Positions 6,585 through 17,577 of a stretch of DNA of 64,000 nt are shown piece by piece. Below the pieces are notes generated by a model, which was not told where the DNA came from, did no database searches, and saw only the letters and a program-made list of their open reading frames with translations. This DNA is from Escherichia phage MIZ6: sequence record OR192075.1; one strand, given 5' to 3'. Numbering within the stretch: position 1 is the stretch's first letter; each line of letters starts with the position of its first letter. The translations under genes were made by a program, and so were the position numbers.

Positions 6585-8054
6585 CTATTCCCCATTACCA
6601 TTATACTTTCTTTGCTTAGTTATCCACACTCTAACCATCTCTACGGATTCACCGTCAGACGGATCAAGAGTTTTTCCTTTTTTCTTCATGCGGTACTTAA
6701 ATCCGTTAAATCTTGCATTCTCTTGCTCGTTAAAGTCGAACATCTTTTTAAATGATTTTCGCCCTTTACGCTCACCGCATTCTAGCGGAATCATTCGGTC
6801 TGTTATTACATTGGCATTAGGCAGAAACGTTTTTAGATAATCCACCAACGCCCAATCAGGAACATATAGATTAACATTCTCCTTGCTCTCGTTGTCTCTC
6901 AGGTTACAACGCAAACATAATTGAAATGCTGGTTCCAGATAATCAGACACATGACGCGCTTTCAAAAACTCGTTTGTTGGGAGATCACAACTATTAGCAA
7001 GACCTTTTAAAATATCAATCTCCCATCGTTGAGGGTTAAAGCTGAACATCACAGCAACATTTTTATGATGAATGTAAGAGTTAAGACCATAAGATCCGTA
7101 AGGTATCCGCTCACCAATACCATTTGTGCACGCTTCACGGTCCCGATTCACGGTATAAATGAAGTCATCACCACATTCATTTTTAACCATATCAACAAGA
7201 CGTTCAAAGGTATTGTTTGTTTCTGACTGGTGACGCGACCATCGTTCGGAGTCCGTCATAAGGATGATGTTAACTCTATCTGTATTTTTATACTCTTTGA
7301 AATATAGTCTGGATTCTAGCGCACTCGGAACAAAATCGCAATTTGCATAGTATCGTAGATACTTCCCACTATATGTATCAAAGAGATTTGCACATGCTAT
7401 CGTAACCTTTTTAAAGTCTCCCCACGTACCGTGTTTGTTATCGTTCAAGAAAACAATTTTCGACCCATTCTTCCGGTGTCCTTCGTTATGTTTTACCATA
7501 ACGTTGATTTTCTTCTCTAATAACGCCTCATAAAGCCCTCTAAGAGAAGAATCGATCATATCAGTACCATCCTTTGCACTTTCTATCTTTTCTTTGATAG
7601 CGGCCTTCTCAGAGTCTTTTAGAACTAAGTTCTGTAGGCATTCCGATTCGTCGGCGATTGGTTCGCAATGCTTCGTGATAAGTTCAAGATTAGACTTAAA
7701 CGGATACTCATTAAATTCAACCAGTTGAGGAACTTCATCAATGTAAAGAGCATATTCACCAAACATTTTTGAACGTTCCATATTAGATAACGCTGTATGT
7801 GTAATGAATATCACATCAGCACCATCTTTAACTGATTGCATTATAGACGCTTGCACTGTCTTAAGGCTTCTTAGTCTTGTGCTATCAATCAAGACAGCAC
7901 GACCGCCCATTCTTTTAAACTTATTGTAAGATTGTTCACTTAAAACACGAGATGGCGAAGCAATAACCGCTTTTTCTTTTGTCTCTAGGACGTGGGAAAG
8001 TATAGCATCAGTTTTCCCCGCCGCTGGCAATGCGATTAATGTTTCAATCTTCAT
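6585..8054 (-). CDS. P-loop NTPase with helicase-like motifs and a large unassigned C-terminal region
   Basis: 489 aa; Walker A LPAAGKT, motif Ia-like SPSRVLSEQ, Walker B ALYIDEV in first ~110 aa; remaining ~370 aa no recognisable motif; start overlaps stop of upstream ORF (ATGA at 8054). Confidence 0.7.
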   Translation of the reverse strand: MKIETLIALPAAGKTDAILSHVLETKEKAVIASPSRVLSEQSYNKFKRMGGRAVLIDSTRLRSLKTVQASIMQSVKDGADVIFITHTALSNMERSKMFGEYALYIDEVPQLVEFNEYPFKSNLELITKHCEPIADESECLQNLVLKDSEKAAIKEKIESAKDGTDMIDSSLRGLYEALLEKKINVMVKHNEGHRKNGSKIVFLNDNKHGTWGDFKKVTIACANLFDTYSGKYLRYYANCDFVPSALESRLYFKEYKNTDRVNIILMTDSERWSRHQSETNNTFERLVDMVKNECGDDFIYTVNRDREACTNGIGERIPYGSYGLNSYIHHKNVAVMFSFNPQRWEIDILKGLANSCDLPTNEFLKARHVSDYLEPAFQLCLRCNLRDNESKENVNLYVPDWALVDYLKTFLPNANVITDRMIPLECGERKGRKSFKKMFDFNEQENARFNGFKYRMKKKGKTLDPSDGESVEMVRVWITKQRKYNGNGE

Positions 8055-8510: not shown

Positions 8511-8780
8511 TCAATAATCATAAATCGCCCTCAGTTCTTTATAGCCTCCAATGTGCTCGTTGTTAATGAATATCTGGGGGTATACAAACCGGAGGCTCTT
8601 TGAGTTCAGCCTCCCCGCCAGTTCTTCAATCATATCACGGTCGGGAATAATGTCAACCCCGACCTGCTTGAATACTGGTTTAAGTGTATACGGAATACCC
8701 AGATCATCCAGTAGCTTCATTGCACTAATACAACCATAACAATGATAAGCCTCTTTCGGTATGCCGTATATCTCGATCAT
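8511..8780 (-). CDS. nrdH: glutaredoxin-like protein NrdH
   Basis: 89 aa with CYGC redox motif; synteny next to nrdG/nrdD. Confidence 0.75.
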   Translation of the reverse strand: MIEIYGIPKEAYHCYGCISAMKLLDDLGIPYTLKPVFKQVGVDIIPDRDMIEELAGRLNSKSLRFVYPQIFINNEHIGGYKELRAIYDY

Positions 8781-9277
8781 TTCTCAGCCTTTAATCTTTC
8801 TAGTTCTTCTTCCAGTTCCTTGATCCGTTGGTCACGTTCAAAGTCACGTTGTAGCTTAGTGGCAAATACCCGCTTAAACTGATTGTAATCATCGATTTTA
8901 AACACTTCTTCTTCGCCATAGCGACGTACAGAAACTTCGTAGTTATTGAAGAATTGTTGCATCATTGCTTCGGATGATAGTTCTGCTGATACTACTTTAA
9001 AATATTGATCTTCTGTAGGCGAAAACCAATTACAAGCATAAAGATAAACCTTTTCATTGTCTGGGCACTGGTAAGCCTTACCATCGATTTCAATCACAGA
9101 AACATATTCAGGTATAGTAGATGAATCAATAGCTAAGACTTTAAACTGACGGTCCCCGATAAACTCAGAGATCACACGATTCGCATCACTGGTTGCAAAG
9201 GCTTTACGCGCTTGTTCGCTTTTCCACTGATAGGTCATACCAACAACAAACATATTACCAACCTCGCTCTTTACCAA
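8777..9277 (-). CDS. paralogous modular protein A (beta-rich domain plus C-terminal coiled-coil tail)
   Basis: shares KSEQARK and domain pattern with neighbours; tail ...QRIKELEEELERLKAEK. Confidence 0.6.
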   Translation of the reverse strand: MVKSEVGNMFVVGMTYQWKSEQARKAFATSDANRVISEFIGDRQFKVLAIDSSTIPEYVSVIEIDGKAYQCPDNEKVYLYACNWFSPTEDQYFKVVSAELSSEAMMQQFFNNYEVSVRRYGEEEVFKIDDYNQFKRVFATKLQRDFERDQRIKELEEELERLKAEK

Positions 9278-10079
9278 TCAAAAATTCAACTTCACGACGT
9301 TTAATGTCTTCTTGAAGGTCTTTAATCTTCTGGCGATCTTGCATGATTTCGTCCATTTTGTCAAGTGCTGCAATAAAATCATCGAAACGTTCAAAGGTTT
9401 TACCTTCATTTGCTTCGCCAAATTTAACCATAGTCAGACCGTAACGACTACTAAACAGACGTTTCAACTGTCCAACGATCTTAGAATCAGTGGTTATAAC
9501 TTCCAATTCTTCTACTTCTTGAAAGAATTTTCTATCAGAATCAATAAACCAGCTAGTTCCTTTATGGTTGCTATCTTCGGTTGCACTCATTAGAGTATGG
9601 TCTTTACCATCAATTTCAATTACATCAATTTGCCCACATGGACGAACATTTTTAACAGTAAAAGGTCTATAATTTATTGCTCGTGCAATAACATAATTAA
9701 GGTTAGATACGTTTTCAGCATAATGGCAGAAGTCGGTCATAGCATTCGCATCTTTCCAAGTATAAGTTTTACCAACTTCCCATTTCTGGGGAACTTCTTC
9801 AACTTCACGAAAGAATTTTCTATCGAATGGACTAAAGAAATATGTTGCCGTCCAAATGTCTTTTCCTGTAGCAGTTTTCGCCGTATGATAAACACCGTCT
9901 AGCTCTATTGCATTAATCCAACCATTACCCTCGATCTCGATGATGGTAAATGGCTTGTCACCAATAGCTGCACTAATATCGCTATTAAGTGGAGAAAGAA
10001 CACCTTCTCCGTTAGTAATAAACTCAGTTTTAGCGTTTACATCTTTCCAGGTGTAAGTTTTACCAATTTCCCATTTCAT
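9255..10079 (-). CDS. paralogous modular protein B (internal tandem duplication of the ~95-aa domain)
   Basis: MKWEIGKTYTWKD...DRKFFREVEE repeated as KWEVGKTYTWKD...DRKFFQEVEE. Confidence 0.65.
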   Translation of the reverse strand: MKWEIGKTYTWKDVNAKTEFITNGEGVLSPLNSDISAAIGDKPFTIIEIEGNGWINAIELDGVYHTAKTATGKDIWTATYFFSPFDRKFFREVEEVPQKWEVGKTYTWKDANAMTDFCHYAENVSNLNYVIARAINYRPFTVKNVRPCGQIDVIEIDGKDHTLMSATEDSNHKGTSWFIDSDRKFFQEVEELEVITTDSKIVGQLKRLFSSRYGLTMVKFGEANEGKTFERFDDFIAALDKMDEIMQDRQKIKDLQEDIKRREVEFLIGKERGW

Positions 10080-10091
10080 AATATATTCCCC

Positions 10092-10577
10092 TTAACCGAT
10101 TTTATCAAGTTCGTTTAATGCTTTCTCTGCTTCCTGTATAGCTTGCACCCTTTCCGGCATTTTGTCAAGAAAATCTTTCAACTCTTCAAAACTGGAGATA
10201 TGACGCAAGGCATTAGCACCGATAGCCGCATGTGATTTGCATTCAAAGCGAATTTTATAATTATCCATAGCCAATTTGAGAAGATCAATTAGATCATATT
10301 CACGACCAGGCAATAAAACTTCTTTGAAGCACGCTCGGTCGCCATCGGAAAACCATATATTATCGCCAACATCGATAGAACTAATATAATCCCCTTCGTG
10401 ATTATAGATTGAACGTACATTACCCCAACGGTCTACAGTAGCGACAGTAAATGGTTTATCTAGATATGTAAACACACCATCAATATTAGGTTTTTGTTCG
10501 TAACGCCAACAATCACGCAAAATACGCTTTTCGTACTCACCAACCAACTTATATGTCTTCCCTTCTTCCCATTTCAT
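10092..10577 (-). CDS. paralogous modular protein C
   Basis: likely start at MKWEEGKTY...; same domain and helical tail (..MPERVQAIQEAEK..). Confidence 0.6.
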   Translation of the reverse strand: MKWEEGKTYKLVGEYEKRILRDCWRYEQKPNIDGVFTYLDKPFTVATVDRWGNVRSIYNHEGDYISSIDVGDNIWFSDGDRACFKEVLLPGREYDLIDLLKLAMDNYKIRFECKSHAAIGANALRHISSFEELKDFLDKMPERVQAIQEAEKALNELDKIG

Positions 10578-10581
10578 AATA

Positions 10582-11109
10582 TCATCTCTCATTTTTGATA
10601 TGTGATTCTAATTGGATCATACGGTCGCGCGTTTGCTTATATTCTCGGATAGCACCGATCCGGCTAGGCATACCATCCAGTACGCTCTTAATCCCTTCTA
10701 GGGTAGTGATTTTAGCAATACTATTATGCAATCCCATCTTATCGATTAACTGAATGTCGTAGGCTTCCATAAGCAGACCCAGACGTTCTAAAGTTAGGTC
10801 TTCTTCTTTTTCTTCCGATTCTGGAATCTTAGGTTCAATAGTAACTTCGGTAAAGAAACGACGCTCGCCCGACCAAAACCACACACCGGAACAGCCAATA
10901 GGGGATTCTTTTAACGTCATAGAGTCGTAACCGCTGCCGATAATAGTAATTTCTCTAACATCACCATCATCGTCAATGTCTTCTACCCTAAACGGGCGAC
11001 CAGCCAACAAGTCAACAATACATCTGTTAATAGACGACGAAAATTTAGTCAGTTCGGCTTTCGACGCTTCGCATTCAATCTTGTAAGTTTTACCAACTTC
11101 CCATTCCAT
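10582..11109 (-). CDS. paralogous modular protein D
   Basis: likely start MEWEVGKTY...; tail ..GMPSRIGAIREYK.. Confidence 0.6.
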   Translation of the reverse strand: MEWEVGKTYKIECEASKAELTKFSSSINRCIVDLLAGRPFRVEDIDDDGDVREITIIGSGYDSMTLKESPIGCSGVWFWSGERRFFTEVTIEPKIPESEEKEEDLTLERLGLLMEAYDIQLIDKMGLHNSIAKITTLEGIKSVLDGMPSRIGAIREYKQTRDRMIQLESHIKNER

Positions 11110-11119
11110 AATAATCACC

Positions 11120-11629
11120 TCAAATAATTTTCACTGGAATACTATTAACAATCTTGTATTGTACTTGATTGTCAGACCCCCGCCACGGCTTCTTCGTTGG
11201 CATATCTTTAATATAACGACCATCGATGAACATGTCAACTGATTCTACAATTTTTCTTTGCTCATCATTCAATTGGTCAAGGGTATAACCAGACCATAGC
11301 CAAATATCTTTATTTGGCATCCATGATTTTACTTCATCGATGATCCGCTGTACACCCTTTAAATTGCGTTTATACAGTGGATCGCCACCTAAGAATGTTA
11401 GCCCCTGAATAAAATCAGGTCTAAGCAGATCCAGAATCAATCCCATTGTATCATCGGTGAATGGTTCCCCGTTCTTAGGATTGAGTATACTGGAATTAAA
11501 GCAACCATCACATGCGTGTGAACATCCGGTAACGTAAAGGGAGACTCTCACTCCCTCACCGTTAACCATATCACAATCTTTAATATCGGCATAGCGTAGT
11601 TTGCCGTATGTATCAGAACTCATATTCAA
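11120..11629 (-). CDS. nrdG: anaerobic ribonucleotide reductase activating protein NrdG (radical SAM)
   Basis: 169 aa; CxxxCxxC cluster (CSHACDGC) near N-terminus; synteny with nrdD. Confidence 0.85.
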   Translation of the reverse strand: MNMSSDTYGKLRYADIKDCDMVNGEGVRVSLYVTGCSHACDGCFNSSILNPKNGEPFTDDTMGLILDLLRPDFIQGLTFLGGDPLYKRNLKGVQRIIDEVKSWMPNKDIWLWSGYTLDQLNDEQRKIVESVDMFIDGRYIKDMPTKKPWRGSDNQVQYKIVNSIPVKII

Positions 11630-11765
11630 TTACCCCGAACTCGTTTACAATCTGCGCTTTATAGTAACCACCGCGAGATGCTAATAGATAAGCTGGGCTT
11701 AGGTATTCGTATTCACGGATTTCTACTTGTGCGTTTTCAGTTTCCCAAATCAGTAAAGTCCACAT
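11613..11765 (-). CDS. hypothetical small protein (50 aa)
   Basis: track ORF 11613..11840 has the promoter inside its 5' end; true start likely ATG 11763-11765 with AGGAGA. Confidence 0.4.
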   Translation of the reverse strand: MWTLLIWETENAQVEIREYEYLSPAYLLASRGGYYKAQIVNEFGVIEYEF

Positions 11766-11807
11766 ATTTGATTCTCCTGTAAAGTTGTATCTCGTCTTGA
11801 TGAATAT

Positions 11808-11836
11808 AGTATAGGGGATCTCGCGATCCCCGTCAA
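11808..11836 (-). promoter_or_regulatory. sigma70-like early promoter
   Basis: -35 TTGACG 11831-11836, 17-bp spacer containing palindrome GGGGATC-GCGA-GATCCCC, -10 TATACT 11808-11813. Confidence 0.55.
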
Positions 11837-11840
11837 GCAT

Positions 11841-12389
11841 TTATTTTAAATTTTTTCGAATGTATTCAGACCATTCCTTCCCTGTCATTTCGGACCCGTT
11901 CTGGAAACTGAAATATTCATACGGCATCGAGTCAAGATAAAACAGGATCATACATCGCGCCATATAATACCAATCACGATTAAAGTAAACTACGTTATCA
12001 CCAGTACCATCAACCCCTTTATCATAACCATCGCGGGTACGGGCGACCCATTGAATAGTATCATTTTTCTCGCGGATCGTAACAGGTTCCCAATATCCAG
12101 CACATCCAGCATGACCACACGAACAAGTCAGGAAATATTGACCTTTTGCTTTGTTGTCATCCCATTCACGATGGATTGGTTCGATCTCGTGAAACAGTGC
12201 TAAGCAATCATGATTATGCAACACTGGCTTACCATCAATCAATGCATGGAATGTATACAAACGACCAGTAGACAAATAGCTATCCTCACGCTCAACCAGT
12301 TCAATAGCAATCTTTTTAGCTCGTTCTTTGTGTCGTTGTGCTTTACGCTTACGGTTTAATGATTTCATATTCACCTCACACATTATCAA
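11841..12389 (-). CDS. hypothetical protein
   Basis: 182-aa ORF; Cys/His-rich segment CSCGHAGCAGYW. Confidence 0.5.
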   Translation of the reverse strand: MIMCEVNMKSLNRKRKAQRHKERAKKIAIELVEREDSYLSTGRLYTFHALIDGKPVLHNHDCLALFHEIEPIHREWDDNKAKGQYFLTCSCGHAGCAGYWEPVTIREKNDTIQWVARTRDGYDKGVDGTGDNVVYFNRDWYYMARCMILFYLDSMPYEYFSFQNGSEMTGKEWSEYIRKNLK

Positions 12390-12796
12390 AGGTCGCGATA
12401 TAGTACATTATGAAAATGAGAACTTGCATTACCAATATTGTAGATAATAAATTCTTCATCCGGCGCTTGCGCTACAAATTGAGTATGAGCAACCGCCACA
12501 ACCTTAAAAATACGATCCGTGATCTTGTGTTTAATTTCTGCTCCTACTTCCATAGGAACATATTCATGTGTTTCTGTTTCAGTCGCAAAACAGCCATCTT
12601 CTTCATAAGCACGAACAAATCGATCGCAATCAGTACGCTTAACAAATTCAAGAGTATATAATTCTCGTGAATTGTCGGTATAGACCAACACAGAATTATT
12701 CTGATAGCGAATCACATACAGGTTATTATCATCGTCAATTACGCAAAAGCTACGGATTTGTGTTCCTTCGCCTTTACTCCAGCAGATATTAACCAC
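12386..12796 (-). CDS. hypothetical protein (GTG start with GAGGA RBS, or -1 frameshift continuation of upstream ORF)
   Basis: 136-aa ORF; 5' end overlaps 12739..12930 by 58 nt in the -1 frame. Confidence 0.5.
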   Translation of the reverse strand: MVNICWSKGEGTQIRSFCVIDDDNNLYVIRYQNNSVLVYTDNSRELYTLEFVKRTDCDRFVRAYEEDGCFATETETHEYVPMEVGAEIKHKITDRIFKVVAVAHTQFVAQAPDEEFIIYNIGNASSHFHNVLYRDL

Positions 12797-12930
12797 CGTT
12801 CCTCTAATAAAAAACTTTCCTTTAAATTAAAACTAGACAATGTGCTAGCGTGCATTTTCACAACAACACCATCGCCAATTTCCAGTTTACGAAGTTTAAC
12901 TTCTTTGCTCAGTACACAAAACATCATCAT
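12739..12930 (-). CDS. hypothetical protein (63 aa) containing T_TTT_TTA slippery heptamer
   Basis: ATG 12928-12930 with GAGAGGA RBS and promoter upstream. Confidence 0.5.
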   Translation of the reverse strand: MMMFCVLSKEVKLRKLEIGDGVVVKMHASTLSSFNLKESFLLEERWLISAGVKAKEHKSVAFA

Positions 12931-12959: not shown

Positions 12960-12988
12960 ATTATACATTAGCTAATCATGTTGTCAAC
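12960..12988 (-). promoter_or_regulatory. sigma70-like early promoter (cassette with terminator 13005-13024)
   Basis: -35 TTGACA 12983-12988, 17-bp spacer, -10 TATAAT 12960-12965. Confidence 0.6.
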
Positions 12989-13004
12989 ACCCCAAAACGA
13001 AAAA

Positions 13005-13024
13005 GCCGACCCTTTCGGATCGGC
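13005..13024 (-). terminator. rho-independent terminator hairpin after nrdD
   Basis: GCCGA-CCCTTTCGGA-TCGGC flanked by A/T runs. Confidence 0.55.
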
Positions 13025-13030
13025 TGAAAA

Positions 13031-14938: not shown

Positions 14939-15433
14939 TTATTTTACCAGTTCTGCTAATTCTTTTTCTTTAGCTTCCAGTTCAGCCTTAAGCTGTTTAA
15001 TCTCTTGTCGCTTCTTATTAGCGGCTTCTTGCTTACTATTTCGGATAACCTGATCTAGATACAACTCCCAATCCTGAATATTTTTGATAATATAACCGTC
15101 AACATTAATTGGTCGGATATTTAGTACAGCTTCCAGTTTAGTCGCAAAAACTTTAATTGCTGGGGTGAAGTATTCATATTCGTTATCTTCAAACCAATAA
15201 CCTAGACTTGCATTATCAATACGAAGACGAAGTTCAAGATCAAGGTCTTTATCTTCGGTGTAAAGATCTTTCACCTGACCCAGCGAACTAACAACAACTT
15301 TAAAACGAATTTTATCTACACCACCAAACACATCAGTAAGTATACCAGCAATTGAGCTATTAGCGCAAGATTGGTCGCTGAATGCGTCAAGGTTTTCTTT
15401 AGTTACAGTATACCAAACATCTTGTACCCACAT
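14939..15433 (-). CDS. hypothetical protein with C-terminal coiled-coil tail (family-related)
   Basis: 164 aa; tail ..KKRQEIKQLKAELEAKEKELAELVK; own promoter and RBS. Confidence 0.55.
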   Translation of the reverse strand: MWVQDVWYTVTKENLDAFSDQSCANSSIAGILTDVFGGVDKIRFKVVVSSLGQVKDLYTEDKDLDLELRLRIDNASLGYWFEDNEYEYFTPAIKVFATKLEAVLNIRPINVDGYIIKNIQDWELYLDQVIRNSKQEAANKKRQEIKQLKAELEAKEKELAELVK

Positions 15434-15463: not shown

Positions 15464-15491
15464 ATTATAGCATACTCCCTTCGCATGTCAA
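15464..15491 (-). promoter_or_regulatory. sigma70-like early promoter with inverted repeat around -10
   Basis: -35 TTGACA 15486-15491; -10 TATAAT 15464-15469 bracketed by GGGAGTAT (15458-15465) / ATACTCCC (15472-15479). Confidence 0.6.
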
Positions 15492-16666
15492 GCACTAACT
15501 TTTTTCTTTATTGCTTTCACCTTCTGGCGAATTGCTCGAATCTCTTCGATCTCTTTTTCAGTATCTTTAACAATTTCTTTGCGATTCTGAATATCTTTAT
15601 CGAGATTATCATCAAGTTTAGGCAGCATGTCAATCAAGAACTTTTTAAGGTCTTTCAGGTTGCGAATAACAGTACCTTCACCCATTACCGCCACGCCTAC
15701 ACCATCCGGCAGATCACCAAACAGCTTAACCAGTTCAGACAGATGATCATGATCTTCTAGTGCTTCTTCTGATTCAGATGGCAGTTCAACAAAGTTATAA
15801 CGTTCATCATTGCTGATCAGGTGATACCAGCAAAGCCCAAAAGATTTAGGAGTATATTCTACACCACCAACTTCAACTGCGTCAACACTTCCGAAAGAAT
15901 CTACTTTAGTTACCTTAAATCCATGTTCCAGCGTTTTAATAATTTCAATAACATGACTGGATACGGTTTCAGTATTAAACCAATGAGGCAAATTATGTGG
16001 ATTTGGCTTGTATCGTTCGCCTACTTTAAATCTCTGACCACGCTCTTGCATACGGACATATTCAACTCGCGTGATTTCCGCGAAGTATTCAAATTCGCTA
16101 CCGTCAAACAAGCAATTCCATTGATCACAAAAACGATCCGCCTTGACGGTTTCACCTTTCGCGGTGATCATGGTAGCTGATCCGTGCAATTCTTCTTCAA
16201 CCAAAAAGCCATATTCGACAAAATCAACAAGTTTCATGGCTTCTTTGTGCTCTGGGTCATGCTCTCCCCAGAATCGCTTAAATTCTTGCAAACCTTCTGG
16301 TGTAAACGAATAACATTTACCTTTTTCAAAGTAAGTCGGCATTGCATCCTCTTTCTTGTTCATCGCTTCGTATGCCTCTTTTGAGATGCGTTTAAAGTAT
16401 TTACGCTCATCGTGCATAATCATAGTAGCCCAATAATAAACGATATCCTCAGCGGAATAAACTACATCTCCAGCTTCAATAGTAATAACATGACCGTTGT
16501 CATCTTTTTCTAATACTTTAAAGCCCTTTTCGACGATTTCAGCAACCCGAATATGACCACGGCGCGAAGCATCGGTCAGAATAATTGAATAGCGAGAAAA
16601 GTCTAGAAACTCATCTTTACCACCTTCACGGAATGCATAGTAATGACCTTCAAAGAATTTAGCCAT
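15488..16666 (-). CDS. paralogous modular protein E (three repeats of GFKV-type domain plus helical tail)
   Basis: 392 aa; repeats GFKVLEKDD..ERKYFKRI, GFLVEEEL.., GFKVTKVD..ERYNFVEL. Confidence 0.65.
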   Translation of the reverse strand: MAKFFEGHYYAFREGGKDEFLDFSRYSIILTDASRRGHIRVAEIVEKGFKVLEKDDNGHVITIEAGDVVYSAEDIVYYWATMIMHDERKYFKRISKEAYEAMNKKEDAMPTYFEKGKCYSFTPEGLQEFKRFWGEHDPEHKEAMKLVDFVEYGFLVEEELHGSATMITAKGETVKADRFCDQWNCLFDGSEFEYFAEITRVEYVRMQERGQRFKVGERYKPNPHNLPHWFNTETVSSHVIEIIKTLEHGFKVTKVDSFGSVDAVEVGGVEYTPKSFGLCWYHLISNDERYNFVELPSESEEALEDHDHLSELVKLFGDLPDGVGVAVMGEGTVIRNLKDLKKFLIDMLPKLDDNLDKDIQNRKEIVKDTEKEIEEIRAIRQKVKAIKKKVSA

Positions 16667-16729: not shown

Positions 16730-17290
16730 TTAAAGTGACTTTTGGATCTCTTTCAGTTCAGCTACTTTATCGGCGCTGAATTTAGCGTAGGTATCATGTC
16801 GAATAATTTCACTTTCAAGAAAGGTTTCCAGCCGAGATCTATTTTCAATAAGGAACTCTTTCAGGTCTTCCGCGTTCTTGATAAAGATTTTATTGTCAGT
16901 AATGTCATCTTCAATCGCAAAGGAGATAGAGCGAACTTTACCAAACAAGTTAATCAGATCTTCCAGCGATTCTTCTTTCTTAACTGGTTTCATTTCTTCA
17001 AACTGCTTTTTAGTGATGCGTTTAAAGTATTTGCGCTCGTTTGCAGCAATCAGAACAGATGCACCTTCATACCCATGAGTTTCTACCAGATACACACGCC
17101 CCATCGCATCAACAGTGAGAACTTTAAAGCCGTTACAAAGCACGTCATACAAGAACTTATTATGTTGCGGACATCGTTTGATAAATTCTGCGGCTGTTTC
17201 TGCACTACGGAAAGTATAGTAACGACCTCGTTCAAAAACAGCATCATTTGAAGACTTAGCCGGATACAATTTATACGTTTTCTGTACCAT
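16730..17290 (-). CDS. paralogous modular protein F
   Basis: likely start ATG 17288-17290 (MVQKTYKLY) with GAGGAT RBS; GFKVLTVDAMGRV..ERKYFKRI. Confidence 0.6.
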   Translation of the reverse strand: MVQKTYKLYPAKSSNDAVFERGRYYTFRSAETAAEFIKRCPQHNKFLYDVLCNGFKVLTVDAMGRVYLVETHGYEGASVLIAANERKYFKRITKKQFEEMKPVKKEESLEDLINLFGKVRSISFAIEDDITDNKIFIKNAEDLKEFLIENRSRLETFLESEIIRHDTYAKFSADKVAELKEIQKSL

Positions 17291-17304
17291 AATATAATCC
17301 TCTA

Positions 17305-17577
17305 TCATTTCACTAATTGAACAGCACGAAACAGAATGCGGTCACACGGAAGAAGCATAAATTCCCAACGCGGATCAAAGTCTTTAGCGGTATATGTTTT
17401 CCCATCAACCGAGATTTCACTTACATAACCAATAGGTGACACTTTAAGAACAGTAAACCCATTCTTGATGACTTCGTAGGTATCTTTCAATCCTTCGTAG
17501 TCATCCTCTAGGAAGTCTTTACGTGCTTGCTCAGATTTAAAAACATAGGCAACACCGGATTTAAACATCTTACGCAT
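17305..17577 (-). CDS. paralogous protein G (single domain)
   Basis: likely start ATG 17575-17577 (MRKMFKSGV) with AAGGAG; shares KSEQARK with A and GFTVLKV with E/F. Confidence 0.55.
   Translation of the reverse strand: MRKMFKSGVAYVFKSEQARKDFLEDDYEGLKDTYEVIKNGFTVLKVSPIGYVSEISVDGKTYTAKDFDPRWEFMLLPCDRILFRAVQLVK

Follow-up and report, generated by a model that had tools for sequence, protein, structure and literature searches.

A tandem array of paralogous genes related to T4 goF within the anaerobic ribonucleotide reductase cluster of the Krischvirus phage MIZ6

Four adjacent minus-strand genes, here designated A to D, separate nrdH from nrdG in the 64,000-nt stretch (the window) of the genome of Escherichia phage MIZ6 (record OR192075.1; equivalent to positions 99666–163665 of phage MIZ2) that is the subject of this study. 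The phage belongs to the genus Krischvirus (RB49-like) of the Straboviridae. As judged from pairwise and profile comparisons the four genes are confirmed as true paralogues, their similarity being far above chance, and the domain of ~90 amino acids (aa) with which their products begin has its homologue at the N-terminus of the T4 protein GoF (comC-alpha) and probably another in T4 Frd.2. The explanation that we favor, with moderate confidence, is that the array represents a tandem expansion of the GoF/Frd.2 early proteins, whose members would be non-enzymatic, oligomeric binders, probably acting on the host-dependent fate of mRNA.

Homology of the repeated domain to GoF and Frd.2

The initial annotation, made from the sequence of the window, did not recognize the repeated domain in any characterized T4 protein, a statement that is incorrect. 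A hidden Markov model (HMM) built from the five N-terminal domains (N-domains) of A–D matches T4 GoF with an E-value of 1e-7 over HMM positions 2–95, and the profile of the N-domains of the window is aligned by hhalign with GoF residues 1–91 over 90 columns (96.3%, E 2e-9). With Frd.2, hhalign yields 73.6% (E 2.9e-5). The third T4 protein to be considered, MotB.1, is reached by hhalign at 37% over 41 columns and by a broad family HMM at E 4.6e-4, and is assigned to a separate PHROG without cross-match, so that no convincing link to it was obtained. A–D also match phrog_622, the PHROG containing GoF and Frd.2, although they sit in a separate one, phrog_5347. Searches in the opposite direction are consistent with these results, in that phmmer finds an A-like representative (P0072, E 7e-6) starting from GoF and the third repeat of gene F, a further gene of the window described below, starting from Frd.2 (E 1e-5). 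Genes F and G fall into phrog_8944, named "goF mRNA metabolism modulator", and are annotated as "Frd.2" in ECD7 and as "goF" in SSG23. Across the examined 103 kb of T4, the family HMM matches goF and frd.2 only.

In substance, therefore, the domain is that of a described family, the GoF/MotB.1/Frd.2 group defined by Kim et al. 2025 (PMC12152347) as "LSm-like fold proteins of Tevenvirinae", whose closest counterparts among solved structures are SH3-like domains of the FeoA type, and in which a flexible linker leads to variable C-terminal domains. Neither RB49 nor Krischvirus nor paralogue arrays are mentioned by these authors (PMC12152347), and our literature search on paralogue arrays in RB49 found no description of the one studied here. 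What is added here to the work of Kim et al. is incremental and consists of the eight genes with twelve domains near nrdD/nrdG, the nine members per genome, the hypervariability of the N-domain, the multi-domain proteins, the probable coiled-coil tail and the presence of suppressor-like residues. As a practical consequence, A–D can be re-annotated from "hypothetical protein" to GoF-family proteins in about 58 Krischvirus genomes.

The architecture of T4 GoF resembles that of A–D, since an N-terminal β-barrel of ~90 aa is followed by an acidic linker and by a small C-terminal domain in a protein that is likewise acidic and whose gene, as would be the case for A–D, belongs to the early ones of a T4-like phage. 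T4 GoF matches phrog_5347 with an E-value of 6.5e-7 over its residues 4–137, the small C-terminal domain included, so that this domain is probably common to GoF and A–D. On the other hand, GoF consists of 141 aa, whereas A–D possess an additional C-terminal amphipathic helix of ~30–40 aa; Frd.2, whose similarity to A–D is weaker than that of GoF, is a protein of 128 aa encoded by a single-copy gene beside frd and lacks the coiled-coil tail. Furthermore, T4 has three dispersed single genes (goF, frd.2, motB.1), whereas a Krischvirus genome contains nine family genes, eight of them clustered around nrdD/nrdG, and the domain is present in two copies in B and in three in F.

HMMER detected only 68 matches (E ≤ 1e-3) among 1.84 billion representative proteins; most of them are 120–190 aa long and carry the domain at the N-terminus, some in two or three copies, while their C-terminal parts are of several unrelated types. 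Proteins of 800–3400 aa returned by the same search were discarded as repeat noise, only a stretch of ~35 residues being matched several times. No significant family was found for A–D in Pfam and NCBIfam.

Paralogy and organization of the array

The two N-domain copies of B are 49% identical (BLASTP E 1e-24, all pairwise E-values being scaled to a nominal database size of 1e6), and the other N-domain pairs detected among A–D have E-values between 5e-9 and 0.08; no pairwise BLASTP match is obtained between the N-domains of A and C or of A and D. All four proteins, however, match phrog_5347 (of unknown function) along its entire length, their E-values lying between 5e-59 and 2e-91, and B does so twice. 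These data bear out the initial annotation in describing four tandem paralogous genes endowed with an N-terminal domain and a helical tail, and the significance of the similarity, which might have failed to emerge, is evident. The duplication of the domain within B, also noted there, is seen as two distinct HMM domains. As to the motif proposed to recur in the tails, C and D show it clearly (ELKDFLDKMPERVQAIQ / GIKSVLDGMPSRIGAIR), whereas in A and B it is degenerate.

The coordinates of the genes are collected in Table 1. The likely starts are the ATG codons at 9253 (A), 10079 (B), 10577 (C) and 11109 (D), each accompanied by a Shine-Dalgarno-like sequence and all in agreement with RB49p048–051. 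The four adjacent minus-strand reading frames originally listed are thus retained, with the difference that for A the ATG at 9253 is likelier than the TTG at 9277, which would make A overlap B. Since the genes are separated by 1–12 nt and the stop of A overlaps the start of nrdH, A–D look co-translated and part of one transcription unit in the order nrdG → D → C → B → A → nrdH.

The location between nrdH and nrdG had been correctly indicated, and the view of the array as having been inserted or expanded within the anaerobic ribonucleotide reductase (RNR) gene cluster is likewise supported. In T4, the nrdH–nrdG interval contains only the small membrane-protein gene 55.8, and no orthologue of A–D (55.x or nrdC.x) was found at this locus. 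The 3.3-kb array region is 100% identical in Escherichia phages MIZ2 and MIZ3. Of the 58 records matched, which are those of RB49-like phages, 56 contain at least 80% of it in one place, with 90–100% identity.

Additional members of the family

The count of four genes, although correct for the nrdH–nrdG interval, proved incomplete, for the HMM built from the N-domains of A–D also matches four minus-strand genes situated just beyond nrdD (E to H; Table 1). A C-terminal module of the type seen in A–D is present in E, F and G, and other Krischvirus records annotate F as "frd.2 / goF mRNA metabolism modulator". Altogether the window contains eight family genes with twelve domain copies around nrdG/nrdD.

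When the rest of the MIZ2 genome was scanned, a ninth member of 211 aa (phrog_16187; family HMM E 1e-8) was found at MIZ2 positions 90696–91331 (L013:40696-41331), outside the window, where it is flanked by the gene 41 helicase on one side and the primase on the other. The possibility that this gene is the counterpart of T4 61.2, the ToxN inhibitor TifA, was rejected, no similarity being present. Likewise, the reading frame at 34707–35039 was judged a spurious member, given that its match is confined to HMM positions 24–59 and that it belongs to an unrelated PHROG.

Members of the family are found at still other loci in other T4-like phages. Three of them stand in tandem beside the DNA ligase gene of the T4-like phage MW367898.1 (L018:7541-9084), and a two-domain member lies directly upstream of an nrdH-like gene in a distant T4-like contig (L017:323-1147). 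This distribution suggests that tandem groups of the GoF family are common and occur at various places in the genome.

Table 1. Positions of the family genes, of the genes flanking the array and of the promoter-like sequences in the window.
Feature	Position	Strand	Product	RB49 orthologue	Composition (positions)	Matches and remarks
nrdH glutaredoxin	8511-8780	minus				downstream flank; Pfam Glutaredoxin, RB49 annotation
gene A	8777-9253	minus	158 aa	RB49p048	N-domain ~8978-9253; C-terminal module 8780-8977	phrog_5347 E 3.8e-60; family HMM match
gene B	9255-10079	minus	274 aa	RB49p049	N-domains ~9789-10079 and ~9495-9788; C-terminal module 9258-9494	phrog_5347 E 2.2e-91, 2 stretches; HMM domains E 2e-41 and 1e-43
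gene C	10092-10577	minus	161 aa	RB49p050	N-domain ~10308-10577; C-terminal module 10095-10307	phrog_5347 E 5.3e-59
gene D	10582-11109	minus	175 aa	RB49p051	N-domain ~10831-11109; acidic linker; C-terminal module 10585-10830	phrog_5347 E 1e-66
nrdG anaerobic RNR activase	11120-11629	minus				upstream flank; Pfam Fer4_12 E 2e-43, phrog_626
sigma-70-like promoter match	11210-11238	minus				TTGACA-17-TATATT, 11/12; within nrdG 3' end, ~100 nt upstream of D; candidate early promoter
gene E	14939-15433	minus	164 aa	RB49p057	divergent N-domain; coiled-coil tail (probable)	phrog_15067, weak phrog_3710
sigma-70-like promoter match	15464-15491	minus				12/12; precedes gene E
gene F	15488-16666	minus	392 aa	RB49p058	three tandem N-domains; C-terminal module	phrog_8944 "goF" E 1e-208
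gene G	16730-17308	minus	186-192 aa		one N-domain; C-terminal module	phrog_8944 E 5e-98; start 17308 or 17290
gene H	17305-17577	minus	90 aa		N-domain alone, no tail	phrog_16115 E 5e-63, phrog_5347 E 5e-8

Predicted fold

Two AlphaFold2 models of protein D, having predicted local distance difference test (pLDDT) values of 77.6 and 85.9 (the second derived from 60 sequences), place the strands of the barrel at residues 8–11, 40–45, 51–56 and 86–89, with a further strand at 59–62 in the first model, and an insert of two helices (14–22 and 26–35) between strands 1 and 2. A low-confidence acidic linker (~91–98) then leads to the C-terminal module, modeled as a helix (99–116), two strands (119–121 and 132–134) and a long terminal helix (137–174). 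The fold predicted for the N-domain of A–D is accordingly an SH3-like barrel, most similar to that of FeoA, in agreement with the "LSm-like" fold of Kim et al.; the predicted bent five-stranded antiparallel sheet having FeoA-type SH3 domains as nearest neighbors and the succession of N-domain, linker and separate C-terminal domain, both of them features of the family as these authors describe it, are seen here as well.

The likeness to FeoA is one of fold only and is no evidence of a common function. Indeed, although the SH3-like domains of FeoA and of the IdeR/DtxR regulators (6e55, 7r7b, 4o6j) have a similar fold, they share only 8–15% identity in the alignments, metal ligands are absent from the A–D domain, and Pfam FeoA (PF04023) does not match A–D even at E ≤ 1. 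With Hfq and the Sm/LSm proteins the domain has in common the small bent five-stranded antiparallel sheet from which the name "LSm-like" derives. However, the placement of the helices differs and the surface of A–D is acidic. The domain does not conform to the Sm/LSm/Hfq superfamily proper, which is characterized by the Sm fold (an N-terminal helix, then five bent strands), a detectable similarity to Hfq/Sm and ring oligomers.

Foldseek returned 64 matches at E ≤ 1e-3 among predicted viral structures; among the 50 matches listed, all those bearing a name are uncharacterized phage proteins, among them one called "Dc2". T4-like phages are the source of nearly all of them, and the listed host genera comprise Escherichia, Aeromonas, Proteus, Citrobacter, Edwardsiella, Pectobacterium, Morganella and Serratia. 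A search of the PDB sequences with the family profile gave no significant solved structure.

The terminal helix of the C-terminal module is a probable coiled coil, hydrophobic residues occupying the a/d positions of its heptads at a frequency of 0.54–0.71 compared to 0.33–0.40 overall, a moderate enrichment. A part of GoF and of MotB.1 runs as a dimer (PMC12152347), and these two observations taken together make an oligomerization of A–D plausible.

Divergence of the array among Krischvirus genomes

The divergence of the array was analyzed in eight genomes, namely the window, RB49, ECD7, SSG23, G37-3, G5211, Makalu_002 and one IMG/VR contig; a scan of IMG/VR with nrdG had given two loci and GenBank Krischvirus records were used for the comparison. 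Four genes are present in seven out of seven Krischvirus records compared, D being annotated as two coding sequences in G37-3 (L009:9183-9708), suggesting a frameshift.

The two halves of the proteins have diverged to very different extents. In the N-domains of A–D, non-synonymous divergence (dN) amounts to 0.08–0.19 and synonymous divergence (dS) to 0.17–0.71 (dN/dS 0.26–0.44), whereas the corresponding values are 0.009–0.05 and 0.14–0.55 (0.05–0.19) for the C-terminal modules and 0.001–0.005 and 0.04–0.10 (0.01–0.08) for nrdH, nrdG, nrdD, gp55 and gp49. With gp49 set aside, dN is 0.003–0.005 in the other four of these genes, and dN/dS amounts to 0.03–0.08 in the flanking genes. At non-synonymous sites the N-domains thus diverge 15–60 times faster than the neighboring genes, and their lowest amino acid identity is 46–68%, in contrast to the C-terminal modules of A–C, which are well conserved. 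An extreme case is that of gene C, whose N-domain is very different from that of its RB49 orthologue while the C-terminal module is identical. The contrast between the two parts is absent in E and F, where both are about equally divergent, and reversed in G, where the C-terminal module is the more divergent. Since dS is also raised and dN/dS remains below 1, the pattern points to the exchange of alleles or cassettes combined with relaxed or diversifying constraint, rather than to proven positive selection. In any event, it reveals which half of the protein is variable and presumably recognizes the target.

Variation also affects the number of genes and domains. Two metagenomic contigs (L015:1753-2301 and L016:709-1257) encode an orthologue of B of 182 aa with a single N-domain, which indicates that the internal duplication of B is lineage-specific, and the Logan contig SRR11185258_147272 (L014:5941-6878) contains a D/B chimera of 154 aa and a split A, so that approximately two genes are left between nrdG and nrdH; the chimera is due either to recombination between paralogues with a resulting deletion, or to an artefact of the assembly.

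Expression context

The initial annotation had placed the array in an early region. Compatible with this attribution are the sigma-70-like sequences upstream of D and E (Table 1), to which a consensus scan adds others preceding F and H, and the fact that the late-promoter motif TATAAATA was not found in the region; the enrichment of promoter matches that might have been expected is not seen, as discussed below. On the basis of consensus sequences only, an early (prereplicative) expression of A–D would fit these features.

A strong terminator-like hairpin is found on the minus strand right after nrdD (13004–13025). It is followed by a 12/12 sigma-70-like promoter (12960–12987), which together with the hairpin suggests a boundary between transcription units ahead of the genes lying toward nrdG.

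Possible function of the array

GoF has been known genetically since the studies on rho/nusD suppressors. Its mutant form GoF(D25Y) stabilizes gene 41 mRNA post-transcriptionally (PMC12152347), while frd.2 is the only T4 gene of unknown function that was scored as important for fitness in a CRISPRi-ART screen (PMC11879866). As far as partners are concerned, pull-downs from uninfected cells did not recover any protein bound to GoF.

The conserved core of the domain is mostly hydrophobic (Y9, F40, V42, G49 and F86 in the numbering of protein D), the other conserved residues being an Asn and a Glu (N29 and E82 in GoF). No conserved pattern of His or Cys emerges from the domain alignments, a circumstance that makes an enzymatic or metal-binding site unlikely. 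The lack of conserved catalytic or metal residues, together with the acidity of A–D (isoelectric points 4.8–5.2), leads us to infer that these proteins are non-enzymatic, oligomeric binders made before DNA replication.

More specific indications may come from the two GoF positions at which suppressor mutations are known. The column of G84, the site of G84R, is well aligned and is occupied by Lys or Arg in both copies of B, in D, in the first of the three F copies and in G, and altogether in 29 of 78 family domains. The column of D25, which lies in a loop and is less certain, has Phe or Tyr in D, in domain 2 of B and in domains 1 and 2 of F. Consequently, three N-domains, those of D (10831–11109), the second of B (9495–9788) and the first of F (16373–16666), combine an aromatic residue at the position of D25 with a basic one at that of G84. 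The gain-of-function changes would thus appear to move GoF toward states already present in several of its paralogues.

According to the mechanism that we favor, each protein would consist of one or two SH3-like barrels of ~90 aa, interrupted by the two-helix insert and followed by the acidic linker, and of a C-terminal helix–strand–strand–helix module that would run on into a long amphipathic helix, probably a coiled coil. The variable N-domain would serve as the target-recognition module and the conserved C-terminal module would mediate oligomerization or contact a common partner; individual paralogues would address different targets or variants of the host. If GoF is taken as a guide, the process affected would most likely be the host-dependent fate of mRNA, in terms either of stability or of Rho- or RNase-linked decay of phage transcripts. 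Early expression, oligomerization, binding and the connection with RNA metabolism are all, for A–D, deductions from the data presented above.

Several findings weigh against this explanation. Wild-type GoF and MotB.1 have no clear effect on the reporter (PMC12152347), and neither the deletion or amber mutation of goF nor the amber mutation of frd.2 causes a plating defect in T4 (PMC12152347); it follows that the link with RNA relies on one gain-of-function mutant. Furthermore, the net charge of the N-domains (−3 to −7.5) argues against generic RNA binding, binding to proteins being more in keeping with the acidity of A–D. At the C-terminal end, an HMM built from seven modules of the window matches no T4 protein, the C-terminal domains of GoF and Frd.2 included, so that the phrog_5347 match is the sole support for a C-terminal domain shared with GoF. 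Finally, in the N-domains dN/dS is <1 with a dS that is raised as well, and the total number of promoter matches in the region does not exceed that of shuffled sequences.

A more daring version of the same explanation, which we regard as rather unlikely, is that the array constitutes a diversity-generating battery, in which a constant C-terminal oligomerization or effector module is combined with interchangeable and rapidly diverging N-domains, each suited to another host factor; D, B's second domain and F's first one would then be natively "on" for the mRNA protection that T4 GoF gains only via D25Y or G84R. Possible targets would include variants of Rho, of RNase E or of the degradosome and RNA-targeting defence nucleases. 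If true, this would offer a handle on the decades-old question of the function of GoF. Apart from this, the nine members of RB49-like phages, with their domain duplications, allele swaps and suppressor-like residues, represent a natural set of variants for binding and RNA-stability assays.

The main rival of the explanation that we favor, with which it partly overlaps, is the idea, put forward in the initial annotation, of an anti-defence or host-takeover battery, in which each N-domain would bind and neutralize another of the host's variable proteins (a nuclease or a sensor of a defence system, for instance) in the course of an arms race, the relationship between GoF and RNA being incidental or a special case. 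This we consider possible but improbable. The tandem expansion, the polymorphism in copy and domain number (one-domain B in L015/L016, D/B chimera in L014, split D in G37-3), the fast evolution of the N-domains joined to conserved C-terminal modules of A–C and the apparent allele swap in C are all as expected from such a role; so are the small size and acidity of A–D, their accessory nature, attested by their absence from T4 at nrdH–nrdG, and the barrel itself, since barrels of the SH3, Tudor and CarD-like kinds typically serve to bind proteins. However, no member of the family is tied to any defence system in the literature searched, the dN/dS ratio is below 1, the GoF pull-downs were without a partner protein, and the persistence of four genes in all seven records and of the region in 56 of 58 suggests a stable function rather than a rapid turnover.

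Decidedly less probable is the alternative that the proteins are RNA chaperones of the Hfq/LSm type, whose N-domains would form rings binding RNA directly. Hfq does appear among the structural neighbors of GoF, and the effect of GoF(D25Y) on RNA stability (Kim et al., PMC12152347) would fit, as would the Arg/Lys pair that precedes the last strand in most copies ([DE]R[KR]xF) and the aromatic and basic residues that D, the second B domain and the first F domain carry at the two suppressor columns. Yet the helices lie between strands 1 and 2, instead of forming an N-terminal helix as in Sm proteins, the N-domains are acidic, AlphaFold3 gives no confident GoF hexamer and the wild-type GoF protein shows no activity in the reporter (PMC12152347).

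Very improbable, finally, is a role of A–D as accessory factors of the anaerobic RNR or of iron handling, helping to assemble, activate or regulate NrdD/NrdG, a role evoked by the FeoA-like barrel, by the position between nrdH and nrdG (a radical-SAM Fe-S activase), by the eight family genes that flank nrdG and nrdD and appear co-transcribed with them and by the distant two-domain relative directly upstream of an nrdH-like gene, but contradicted by the positions of T4 goF (adjoining gene 39), of T4 frd.2 (adjoining frd), of the ninth Krischvirus member (adjoining gene 41) and of the tandem triplet beside DNA ligase, by the absence of conserved His or Cys from a domain whose conserved residues are hydrophobic apart from N29 and E82 of GoF, by the lack of a Pfam FeoA match at E ≤ 1 and by the fact that T4 runs NrdDG without such genes at the locus.

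Other observations in the region

On the minus strand between the gp55 gene and a 55.2-like gene, a conserved reading frame of 489 aa (6585–8054) is designated as hypothetical in all annotations; it has no NCBIfam match, and its orthologues carry a weak precomputed match to a DEAD-helicase Pfam family. At 12386–12930 of the same strand, the single reading frame of 178 aa found in RB49 (RB49p055) is represented by two, located at 12739–12930 (63 aa) and 12386–12796 (136 aa, GTG start), because of an apparent frameshift. Lastly, a DUF7170 reading frame (11613–11840, minus strand) overlaps the start of nrdG and is 75 aa long from its first ATG in the window, compared with the 50 aa annotated in RB49.

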